From the IMG/VR virus record IMGVR_UViG_2509276064_000002, positions 9,471 through 73,470 of that record: DNA of 64,000 nt; one strand, 5' to 3'. This DNA is from a virus. Its lineage: Duplodnaviria; Caudoviricetes. Of this stretch, positions 40,046-42,363 are shown piece after piece. The translations under genes and the position numbers were made by a program. How positions within the stretch are numbered: position 1 is the stretch's first letter; each line of letters starts with the position of its first letter. The notes below the pieces were generated by a model, which saw only the letters and a program-made list of their open reading frames with translations, did not search any database and was not told the origin of the DNA.

Positions 40046-41208
40046 GCCGTCCCACCATTCGTCGGATCCGCATAGGTCCCGGGGGTGCCGTTGAACTGCG
40101 CCACGGCCGCCGCGCCACGGTTGCGCACGCCGTACCCGACTTCGCGGCCCCAGTACTCGCTCTGCAGGGGGAAGGTCACGATGGTCCCCACCATGCGCAG
40201 GCCGGGAGCGCCCACCACGGCATCCTCACCCGTCGGCTCACGGCGAGCGATGGGCTTGACCGCAGCGTTGGTGTCCACGGCCGCTGCGTAGTTGGGGAAG
40301 ATCCAGCTCTTCACCCAAATCTCGGCCCCATTGAACAGCCCGATCATGCGGTTGTTTTGACGACCCGTGTCCAAGCGCTGCACGGTCACCGTCTGGTTGA
40401 CGCTGACGATCACGTTGGGGTCAACCGCAGGCGTGAAGCCCGAGAACCCGCGCACGGCCTCTTCCTGGGCCACGTTGATGTAGACCTCGATGCGCGCGTT
40501 GTTGGTGTGCTCCGCGACGTTGAGGATCAGCGCGTTCAGGTTGGCCGCTGTGAAGGCCGAGAAGCCCATGTAATGGCTGTGCGTACCGTCCCAGGTCTCG
40601 CCGTTCGGCCCGAGTGGAGGCGCCGTGCCGTCGTTGTTGTAGAGCGCCTTGACGGGCAACTCCATGTTGTCGCGCAGGAAGTCGTAGAACGTGCTGTTCG
40701 TCGGGTTGAACAGCGTGTTCCGGATCAGCTGGATCGTCTTGCGACGGTCCGCTGCCTCGGCGTTGTACGTGCTCACCGCGATCTGGGCAGGTGTGGCACG
40801 CGCCAGGAAGTCACCCGTGAAGCCCACACCGAACTGGAACCGGCGCATGGGAATGCCGATCTGGGGCGGCGCTCCGGTCTTCTGGGTGGCCACACGGCCG
40901 TACTCGTCGACCTCGCGCATCTCGCCTTCCAGCAGGATGCCGGAAGCGTCCGCCACGATGCGGCTGGGGGCGGCCTGGACGAGGTTGCCCACCATGTCAT
41001 TGATCTGGTTGTTGTGGACCGCCAGTTCGGCTTGCACCGAAGCTTGAACATCTTCTAGGCCAAACTGAATCACGGTCTGGTTCGTGACGTTCTGCAGGTC
41101 ACGCAGATCATAAGTACCGGTGCGAATGGGGGCACGGCGAGGGCTGGAGGCCATGGCCAGGGTTACACCGAGGAGGCTCAGGGTGCTCAAAGAAGTGAAC
41201 TTACGCAT
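40042..41208 (-). CDS. Major capsid protein
   Basis: 388 aa after scaffold and decoration genes; TAATG coupling. Confidence 0.75.
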   Translation of the reverse strand: MRKFTSLSTLSLLGVTLAMASSPRRAPIRTGTYDLRDLQNVTNQTVIQFGLEDVQASVQAELAVHNNQINDMVGNLVQAAPSRIVADASGILLEGEMREVDEYGRVATQKTGAPPQIGIPMRRFQFGVGFTGDFLARATPAQIAVSTYNAEAADRRKTIQLIRNTLFNPTNSTFYDFLRDNMELPVKALYNNDGTAPPLGPNGETWDGTHSHYMGFSAFTAANLNALILNVAEHTNNARIEVYINVAQEEAVRGFSGFTPAVDPNVIVSVNQTVTVQRLDTGRQNNRMIGLFNGAEIWVKSWIFPNYAAAVDTNAAVKPIARREPTGEDAVVGAPGLRMVGTIVTFPLQSEYWGREVGYGVRNRGAAAVAQFNGTPGTYADPTNGGTA

Positions 41209-41609
41209 TAGCCCACCTTCCCGAAGCTGCGGGTCACGATGAGGTCCGAGGTGCCGACGGCGAAGAAGCTGCCGTTCGCATCCTTGGTGCCTGCCGTGTC
41301 GGAGATCTCGCCCACGGTGTCGGACAGGAAGTACGTCTTGCCGATGGTGAGGGTCTGATCGGCCGCACGGAACTGCGTGCTGAGACCGTAGGCGGTCATG
41401 GGCTGGCCGGTGCGGCCCGAGCGGGGCGCGATGCCGAAGAAGACGCTGTTGGCCGTGCCAGCGAAGCGCCAGAGCTTGCCGTCAGGACGAAGCTCCATGG
41501 GCTGACCAGCGGCGACGTCCTCGCCGAGGATCTTCCCAGCGTGCTGCTGGGCGAACTGAGCGCTGGTGGTGTCCACCGAAGCGCGCGGGCTGCGTACGAT
41601 ATTGGTCAT
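41208..41609 (-). CDS. Head decoration-like protein
   Basis: 133 aa, Gly/Thr-rich beta-type sequence, between scaffold and capsid genes. Confidence 0.6.
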   Translation of the reverse strand: MTNIVRSPRASVDTTSAQFAQQHAGKILGEDVAAGQPMELRPDGKLWRFAGTANSVFFGIAPRSGRTGQPMTAYGLSTQFRAADQTLTIGKTYFLSDTVGEISDTAGTKDANGSFFAVGTSDLIVTRSFGKVG

Positions 41610-41625
41610 GTTTTAAAACCTCCGC

Positions 41626-42363
41626 CTACATGGAGTAATCGCCAGAGGCACGCTTCTCCGCTGCGATCTGCTCGGGCGTGCGCGCACCACTGGTGAGGCC
41701 ACCGTTCCCGCCGAGGGGCACGATGGGGGTGGTGATGGGGTTCTGCCGCTGCTGCACCTGGTTGTTCCCGCCACCTTGGGCGGCTAGGGCCGGCAGGAAG
41801 TCGCCCCACTGTTCCTTCGCGTACTGGTCAAGCGGGACAACCTTGTCGGCCAGCTTCACGCCGTACGTTTTGACCTTCTCGCCTGCCTTCTCGCCGTCCA
41901 CCTCGATCTCCTCGAAGGTGAGGTCCCCACCGAGACGCTCAAGCACGCTGGGCTTGTAACCAACCTTGTCGGCCACAGTGCGCAGCGTGTCGCGCTTCTT
42001 CAAGGTGCCGAGTTCAGAGGTCGCCGTCTCGCCATCCGCGAGCTTCGTCTTGAGCTCGTCCGGCTTGCCAAGTGCCTGGTACGCCGCGTACCGTTCTGCA
42101 TCAGCCTTGCTGAGCACCACAGAGCCGTCGGGAAGCTTGGTCTTTTCGACCTCGCCTTCCAGGGTGCGGATTCGGTCCCGGTAGTTGGCGTTCTCGCCGA
42201 GCAACGTCGCTGCGAGCGCAATGGCGTCACCGTTGTGCTTGCTCAGCAGGTTCTGCAGGTTCTGCGCGGCCTTCTGGGGATCAGGCTCCCCTTCAGCACG
42301 GCGGGGCAGGCTGGCCAGGGCAAGCATGGCGGTCAGAGCGAGGGTGCGGGGGAAGGTCTTCAT
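41626..42363 (-). CDS. Capsid scaffolding protein
   Basis: SD aaggagg; helical charged protein with low-complexity C-terminal tail. Confidence 0.7.
   Translation of the reverse strand: MKTFPRTLALTAMLALASLPRRAEGEPDPQKAAQNLQNLLSKHNGDAIALAATLLGENANYRDRIRTLEGEVEKTKLPDGSVVLSKADAERYAAYQALGKPDELKTKLADGETATSELGTLKKRDTLRTVADKVGYKPSVLERLGGDLTFEEIEVDGEKAGEKVKTYGVKLADKVVPLDQYAKEQWGDFLPALAAQGGGNNQVQQRQNPITTPIVPLGGNGGLTSGARTPEQIAAEKRASGDYSM

Follow-up and report, generated by a model that had tools for sequence, protein, structure and literature searches.

A predicted C39-like cysteine peptidase and a shared N-terminal leader in the head modules of Deinococcus prophages

Scaffold and capsid proteins with a common leader

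We analyzed a 64,000-nucleotide stretch of viral DNA (Caudoviricetes; IMG/VR record IMGVR_UViG_2509276064_000002, positions 9,471 to 73,470 of that record), hereafter called the window, which carries the head module of a Deinococcus prophage from a genome of 6.65 Mb. This module occupies positions 46618-40042 on the minus strand and encodes, in order, the small and large terminase subunits, a putative portal, a 167-amino-acid open reading frame (ORF), a scaffold-like protein, a decoration-like protein, and the major capsid protein (Table 1). Our subject is the short N-terminal leader that is common to the scaffold-like and capsid proteins, together with the 167-amino-acid ORF, which we consider to be a candidate for the peptidase that removes this leader.

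An initial annotation, made from the letters of the window alone, had proposed that both proteins begin with a leader composed of a basic start, a hydrophobic stretch, and the residues Pro-Arg-Arg-Ala, and our analysis bears this out. The two start codons are located where they had been placed: the scaffold ATG at 42363 has a strong Shine-Dalgarno sequence (GGAGG) ahead of it, and the capsid ATG at 41208 overlaps the stop codon of the upstream gene (TAATG). Local alignment of the two leaders yields a score of 44, compared to 21 ± 4.5 for shuffled sequences (p = 2.5e-4). Furthermore, when the 6.65-Mb genome is read in its six frames, the nine-residue pattern Ala-x-Ala-Ser-x-Pro-Arg-Arg-Ala is encountered eight times, and in this screen, which had been recommended along with the prediction, only the scaffold and capsid occurrences are found at real N-termini. 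The alignment against shuffles and the genome-wide screen rule out a chance similarity. We also rejected the internal Met codon at 41154 as the true capsid start, because this Met is not conserved in relatives and the whole leader is. The scaffold and capsid leaders are real and conserved.

We assign residues 1-29 of the capsid protein to the leader because its PHROG match begins at residue 30, because the predicted local distance difference test score (pLDDT) of its AlphaFold model is below 50 over nearly all of residues 1-28, and because leaderless capsid homologues begin where the leader of the window capsid ends. The conserved structured part of the protein begins at Thr30-Gly31. The decoration-like protein, whose N-terminal Ser-Pro-Arg-Ala might have been a cleavage site, was considered as a further substrate and rejected, since leaderless relatives align across this stretch and L004 and L005 have not retained it (L numbers designate related loci throughout).

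Table 1. Head-module features of the Deinococcus prophage, with positions in the window
Feature	Positions	Strand	Extent	Basis or description
Terminase small subunit	45896-46618	-		Pfam Terminase_3/Terminase_2 and PHROG terminase families across the two terminase genes
Terminase large subunit	44559-45899	-		Pfam Terminase_3/Terminase_2 and PHROG terminase families across the two terminase genes
Putative portal	42982-44547	-	521 aa	Only position after the large terminase gene, size, and conservation in relatives
Predicted C39-like papain-fold cysteine peptidase (candidate leader peptidase/prohead protease)	42482-42985	-	167 aa	Conserved residues and predicted structure
Scaffold-like protein	41626-42363	-	245 aa	Position ahead of the capsid gene, conservation across relatives
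Scaffold leader	42289-42363	-	about residues 1-25	Basic start, hydrophobic stretch, Pro-Arg-Arg-Ala-Glu-Gly
Decoration/cement-like protein	41208-41609	-	133 aa	Between the scaffold and capsid genes; without hydrophobic leader
Major capsid protein, HK97 fold	40042-41208	-	388 aa	phrog_3990, E 2e-49
Capsid leader	41122-41208	-	residues 1-29	Ends Pro-Arg-Arg-Ala-Pro-Ile-Arg, then conserved Thr-Gly-Thr-Tyr-Asp of the mature domain

The major capsid protein combines a capsid-family match with the HK97 fold. Its AlphaFold model has a pLDDT of 84.7, and in Foldseek this model best matches the capsids of Mycobacterium phages Patience and Adjutor (E about 1e-20), with many other phage capsids among the further matches. 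Neither the putative portal nor the scaffold-like protein has a match in Pfam or PHROG, and homologues of the decoration-like protein in L007 and L062 give weak matches to Pfam Phage_cement.

Several neighboring features were noted in the course of this analysis. The portal gene of the window overlaps the peptidase gene directly (42982-42985); relatives carry an ORF of about 201 amino acids between the two genes (L001:3584-4195, L003:4110-4715), which is absent from the window. Directly after the capsid gene lies a 100-amino-acid ORF (39743-40045, minus strand) with a C-terminal helix-hairpin-helix (Pfam HHH, E 4e-4). Relatives keep longer, coiled-coil versions of this ORF (e.g. L001:7164-7559), which is an unusual gene for a head module. 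Outside the module, the region from about 28000 to 36000 has a guanine-plus-cytosine content of 0.40-0.54, compared to about 0.64 in the phage structural genes, and includes a 434-amino-acid ATPase-like ORF at 34842-36146.

A predicted papain-fold peptidase gene between portal and scaffold

The initial annotation had recognized no prohead protease gene, and the peptidase nature of the 167-amino-acid ORF is unrecognizable from sequence alone. The ORF has no match in Pfam or PHROG and belongs to none of the known prohead protease families (S78, S77, S49/S14), the head genes of the window give no Pfam protease match, and no Peptidase_S78 gene is present in the window's genome. A Pfam scan of 79 members of the ORF's own family returned no meaningful family, and the Peptidase_C39 profile PF03412 was not matched at E values up to 1; in the genome, this profile finds three other genes and not the ORF. 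A search of PDB sequences with the ORF gave no match and one with the family profile gave no peptidase, tblastn of the ORF against 50,697 phage records found nothing, and a word-based homologue search returned only the ORF itself.

Conserved residues and predicted structure, by contrast, point to a peptidase. A profile search of 1.84 billion representative sequences places the ORF in a family of at least 113 sequence clusters, none of which is annotated. Six close homologues have invariant Gln8, Gly13-Cys14, His89, and Ser-Asp-Ser at positions 104-106; across 79 family members, Cys14 and His89 are invariant, and Gln8, Gly13, and Asp105 are conserved in at least 90%. The putative catalytic residues are therefore Gln8, Cys14, His89, and Asp105, arranged as Gln-x5-Cys and His-x15-Asp, which are the spacings of papain and of C39 domains.

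The AlphaFold model of the ORF (pLDDT 82) matches C39 peptidase domains in Foldseek with E values of 1e-5 to 1e-3. VIA-align, an independent all-against-all aligner, gives Z scores of 11.3 for PCAT1, 10.9 for LahT150 bound to its leader, and 10.8 for ComA, and other papain-like chains score below these three with both programs. Judged by the ranges of these structural alignments only, Cys14 appears to lie opposite the catalytic Cys of PCAT1, LahT150, and ComA. In the ESM Atlas, all structure neighbors with an assigned peptidase family are Peptidase_C39, and the feature neighbors are unannotated viral clusters.

Based on this model and the conserved residues, we conclude that the ORF is, by predicted fold only, a C39-like papain-fold cysteine peptidase. 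It shares with Peptidase_C39 a papain-like fold whose nearest solved structures are C39 domains, as well as the putative catalytic Cys, His, Gln, and Asp, and it differs from that family in having neither a PF03412 sequence match nor a presumed substrate leader ending in Gly-Gly or Gly-Ala/Gly-Ser. None of the leaders we read has Gly-Gly at its core, which is Pro-Arg-(Arg)-x and in many cases is followed by one Gly at a distance of one to four residues. The earlier statement that the phage lacks a recognizable prohead protease gene thus no longer holds, given that an ORF predicted to have a C39-like papain fold occupies the position of such a gene.

This position is widely shared. Besides the window, L001-L005, L008, L009, L012, L062, and 14 further Deinococcaceae loci have the gene between portal and scaffold, which brings the number of related loci with this head-module place, between the portal and scaffold/capsid genes, to more than 20. 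Among 124 other Deinococcaceae genomes, the family profile finds the gene in 18, and it gives one weak match elsewhere in the phylum; further scans added one locus among viral contigs and two short contigs among metagenomes.

Leaders and peptidase in related phages

Among 66 homologues of the window capsid, the closest ones, about 25 in number, carry a leader, and the remainder start at the mature domain. Every readable locus with a leader-bearing capsid also has a leader on its scaffold, a pairing read in the window, L001-L005, L008, L009, L012, L062, and further genome loci, with the N-termini and neighbors of capsid relatives P0033 and P0058 outside this set. About 20 related loci have scaffold leaders equivalent to that of the window, and every one of these leaders is preceded by a strong Shine-Dalgarno sequence. 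In L006 and L007, both capsids and scaffolds are leaderless. Co-conservation of the leader in homologous scaffold/capsid pairs, proposed at the outset as a check on the prediction, is thus found in the related prophages.

The presence of the leader coincides with that of the peptidase gene. For this first capsid type, we counted co-occurrence from loci that had been found via the capsid and not via the protease. All eight leader-bearing loci checked (the window, L001-L005, L008, and L062) contain the peptidase, and a six-frame profile search finds it in none of the three leaderless loci (L006, L007, and phage Krampus). A second, unrelated capsid family, of the phrog_29 type, occurs in six peptidase-bearing Deinococcaceae prophages, wherein the scaffold, a 146-amino-acid head protein, and the capsid each have a leader ending in (Pro)-Arg-Gly-acidic. 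When the phylum was searched with this capsid, seven leader-bearing copies were found, all seven of them beside the peptidase gene, along with 19 other copies that start at the mature domain, 14 of which are in genomes without any member of the peptidase family. A third capsid family is represented by L056 (features of note at 2543-3310, 8508-9659, and 9656-10918), whose HK97/Pfam Phage_capsid protein has a delta-like region and a hydrophobic Pro-Arg leader; the portal of this locus is fused to a Mu F-like domain.

Because leaderless homologues of both the first and second capsid families and of the 146-amino-acid protein start at the point where the leader ends, the comparison of these sequences indicates that the leader is a separable add-on to otherwise complete head proteins. 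As a separate observation, both the scaffold-position protein (L015:5808-6542) and the distantly related capsid (6950-8101) of Microbacterium phage Krampus begin with a short stretch, ahead of the conserved region, in which a Leu-x-Gly-(Gln/Arg)-Asp-Gly-like motif is found. To judge from these sequences, such stretches may be another leader type on the same capsid lineage.

What the leaders have conserved is (Pro)-Arg-(Arg), then a small or hydrophobic residue, and in many cases a Gly within four residues. The residue directly after Arg(Arg) differs by lineage, being Ala, Leu, Met, Asp, or Gly, yet it tends to be the same in both proteins of a phage: scaffold and capsid are identical at this position in 15 of 20 loci, where 4.7 would be expected. 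When loci are grouped by lineage the match holds in five of nine (1.6 expected, p 0.012), although the grouping is our own and the loci are related, so that these counts are indicative only. One lineage has a longer core, Arg-Asp-x-x-Thr-Gly-acidic, that is common to its scaffold and capsid.

This pattern bears on the possibility that the leaders are true signal or anchor sequences, which are either cut by host signal peptidase I or kept as anchors for head assembly at the membrane, with the C39-like ORF doing something else. A signal-peptidase-like route had been among the initial suggestions, and the basic-then-hydrophobic layout does resemble that of signal peptides. Moreover, several head proteins in Deinococcaceae prophages bear this type of leader, as would be expected for a host-adapted targeting signal. 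The Ala-x-Ala element is indeed present in both window leaders, where it precedes Ser, but it is not conserved in relatives, several of which carry Pro or bulky residues at the positions that signal peptidase requires to be small. The Pro-Arg that is conserved is no determinant for this enzyme. Immediately behind the putative signal-peptidase cut come one or two Arg residues (Arg or Arg-Arg within 3-5 residues), and Arg in such a place disfavors Sec export. Taken as a set, the leaders therefore have neither the conserved small-x-small element nor the absence of basic residues right after it that mark Sec signal peptides.

The hydrophobic part is also difficult to reconcile with this explanation. 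At 8-16 residues, the stretch is too short for a membrane span, and it is almost gone from the L062 capsid, whose leader of only about 13 residues retains a Pro-x-Arg-x-Gly core and whose locus retains the peptidase. In addition, DNA packaging is cytoplasmic, and a conserved host enzyme would not explain a core that differs by lineage and yet matches within each phage. We therefore hold signal-peptidase processing or membrane anchoring to be quite unlikely, while the hydrophobic part may allow the proteins to bind transiently to the membrane or to a chaperone.

Alternatively, a host cytoplasmic protease might cut the shared motif, as does Prp in staphylococcal phage 80alpha (PMC5744158), a precedent that the initial annotation had also invoked. 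Confinement of the leader type to Deinococcaceae prophages and similar metagenomic contigs would agree with a host factor of this kind. However, the 99.5%-complete host genome has no Prp gene (PF04327), and a crude screen of all frames and of Shine-Dalgarno-preceded starts identified no leader-bearing host proteins as potential native substrates, so that neither component of a Prp/L27-type system, the host enzyme or host proteins with the same leader, was found. Given also that the core motif varies between phage lineages and that a phage-encoded peptidase co-occurs with the leaders, we regard cleavage by a host protease as very improbable.

Two further observations concern other genes of these head modules. 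An ORF of about 180 amino acids that begins with Met-Thr and has a weak Pfam Proteasome match (E 0.021) sits just upstream of the C39-like gene in L004 (4570-5118), L005 (4602-5144), and L008 (4492-5031). It may be a second peptidase of the N-terminal nucleophile (Ntn) type in those modules; as the common leader protease it was ruled out, since it is absent from the window and from L001-L003. The head module of L013 has a distant member of the C39-like family (L013:6639-7097), and there a hydrophobic leader, ending in Ile-Arg-Ala-Gly, is present only on a 152-amino-acid protein and not on the scaffold or capsid.

Proposed removal of the leaders and comparison with known systems

Our preferred explanation is that the phage's own C39-like peptidase removes the scaffold and capsid leaders, to which we give a probability of roughly 0.6. 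According to this proposal, both proteins would be made as precursors with a 25-30-residue N-terminal leader, laid out as a basic start, a hydrophobic and helix-prone stretch, and a Pro-Arg-(Arg)-small-residue core. The phage-encoded leader peptidase would be the product of 42482-42985, whose gene has the usual prohead-protease position. This enzyme would dock on the leader, like C39 domains on a leader helix, and would cut at or just after the Pro-Arg core, near the starts of the leaderless homologues. Mature scaffold and capsid would thereby be set free, either before the procapsid assembles or while it does so.

A cut within a few residues after Arg is expected because leaderless homologues mark the mature ends. 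Leaderless proteins of the first capsid type begin at, or one to three residues before, Thr-Gly-Thr(-Tyr/His-Asp), those of the second type begin at the residue after Pro-Arg-Gly, and the leaderless 146-amino-acid protein begins about one residue after Arg-Gly-Glu. Of two simple cut rules that we considered, cleavage after Arg and cleavage after the next Gly, each is contradicted by some of the sequences.

A number of observations weigh against the proposal that the C39-like peptidase removes the leaders. First, its link to C39 enzymes is drawn from a predicted structure and conserved residues, without a sequence family match. Second, the leader core is not uniform. Apart from Arg, no residue is universal among the leaders, so that the cut site is unreadable from the sequences, and even Arg is replaced by Val in two capsids, L047 and L051. 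The window capsid itself has Pro and an inserted Ile in place of the Gly that follows Arg-Arg-Ala in close relatives. Third, the co-occurrence counts come from related phages and reflect only a few independent gains. Cleavage itself, its exact site and timing, and the role of the hydrophobic part are points that we infer.

Fourth, in three loci the family member departs from the usual position and is found either in the early region or upstream of the terminase. In L058, the gene lies far from the head genes. In L057, a divergent member is in the early region and the head module is leaderless. L056 has its family member upstream of the terminase plus a canonical S78 prohead protease, and this second enzyme would be predicted to remove the leader together with the delta domain. 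The L057 gene (2692-3759, beside a nuclease-like gene) and L010:17-622 form a divergent subfamily that probably has another role, because the head proteins of L057 are leaderless.

Some of these exceptions would be accommodated if the leader were an assembly, folding, or docking tag that brings scaffold and capsid into contact with one another or with a chaperone that both use, with its removal either absent or immaterial and with the peptidase acting on another substrate or on none in the head. In 80alpha, the scaffold leader is needed for assembly, whereas cleavage of scaffold and capsid is dispensable (PMC5744158). The combination of a leader with a canonical S78 protease in L056 means that this leader must act before maturation, and some members of the peptidase family sit outside head modules. 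By analogy, the dispensable cleavage in 80alpha and the S78 protease of L056 suggest that the leader has a job before its removal. A tag whose removal is of no account would not be expected, however, to be found only where the peptidase is present, nor to end exactly where leaderless homologues of both capsid families and of the 146-amino-acid protein start. The leader is disordered in the capsid model, and a Pro-Arg core common to unrelated proteins looks like a recognition site. For these reasons we think it unlikely that the leader is solely such a tag.

A broader hypothesis, which goes beyond leader removal by the C39-like peptidase and which we offer only tentatively, is that a signal-peptide-like Pro-Arg leader and its private C39-like peptidase form a portable module. 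In Deinococcaceae phages, this module would have been added to scaffolds, to one accessory head protein, and to three or more capsid families that are unrelated to one another, and the leader would do its work before removal, for example by membrane delivery or by blocking assembly. We consider this possible, though on present evidence doubtful.

We conclude that the leader is of a new type and that a C39-like peptidase acting with a shared leader most likely constitutes an undescribed way of maturing phage heads. In the literature searched, the coverage of which was incomplete, we found no description of a cysteine or C39 prohead protease of this kind, which agrees with the initial prediction of an undescribed maturation route. 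Most of the prohead proteases known from tailed phages are serine enzymes, of the HK97, T4, lambda, and ClpP types, and the known exceptions are host Prp and the Cp-1 protease (PMC9405229). If our proposal is correct, it would add a new enzyme class to head maturation and would link phage assembly to the leader logic of bacteriocin export. The portable-module hypothesis, if true, would add a new class of prohead protease and also a new control step in the head assembly of tailed phages. Since the at least 113 clusters of the family carry no annotation, many 'hypothetical' head-module genes could be named. Furthermore, prophage annotation can be misled when leader-bearing starts are overlooked or when such leaders are called signal peptides.

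Comparison with known systems brings out what is shared and what is distinct. Relative to the HK97-type Peptidase_S78, the C39-like gene has the same position between portal and scaffold/capsid and the same presumed role, whereas its fold and catalytic type are unrelated and S78 is absent from this genome; L056 has genes of both kinds. In phage T4, a single protease, gp21, cleaves at a short motif that scaffold, capsid, and accessory head proteins all carry close to their N-termini, and N-terminal tags (capsid targeting sequences) are removed after use. T4 gp21 is a serine protease of the herpesvirus-assemblin type, and T4 tags are not signal-peptide-like. The likeness therefore extends to a common motif on several head proteins, while enzyme type, motif, and tags are unrelated.

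Closer in arrangement is 80alpha, whose scaffold and capsid share a short N-terminal leader that is removed by the host cysteine protease Prp (PMC5744158). Common to both systems are the short N-terminal leader of scaffold and capsid and a cysteine protease, which here is a candidate. The 80alpha protease is a host enzyme with a clan CR fold, and the 80alpha leader mimics ribosomal protein L27. For the Deinococcus prophage, by contrast, there is no host Prp, the leader does not resemble L27, and the phage itself encodes the candidate protease, which has a predicted papain fold.

The closest counterparts in predicted structure are the C39 domains of PCAT/AMS transporters (PCAT1, ComA, LahT150), which are the best structural matches of the ORF. 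These domains remove 15-30-residue N-terminal leaders by docking on them. They have the same small papain fold, a catalytic Cys about 14-27 residues from the N-terminus, and Gln, Cys, His, and Asp with equal spacing. In contrast to them, the ORF is free-standing rather than fused to an ABC transporter, is encoded in a phage head module, and has no PF03412 match. Its presumed substrates are structural proteins, with leaders that lack Gly-Gly and are far more hydrophobic than those of the transporter systems.

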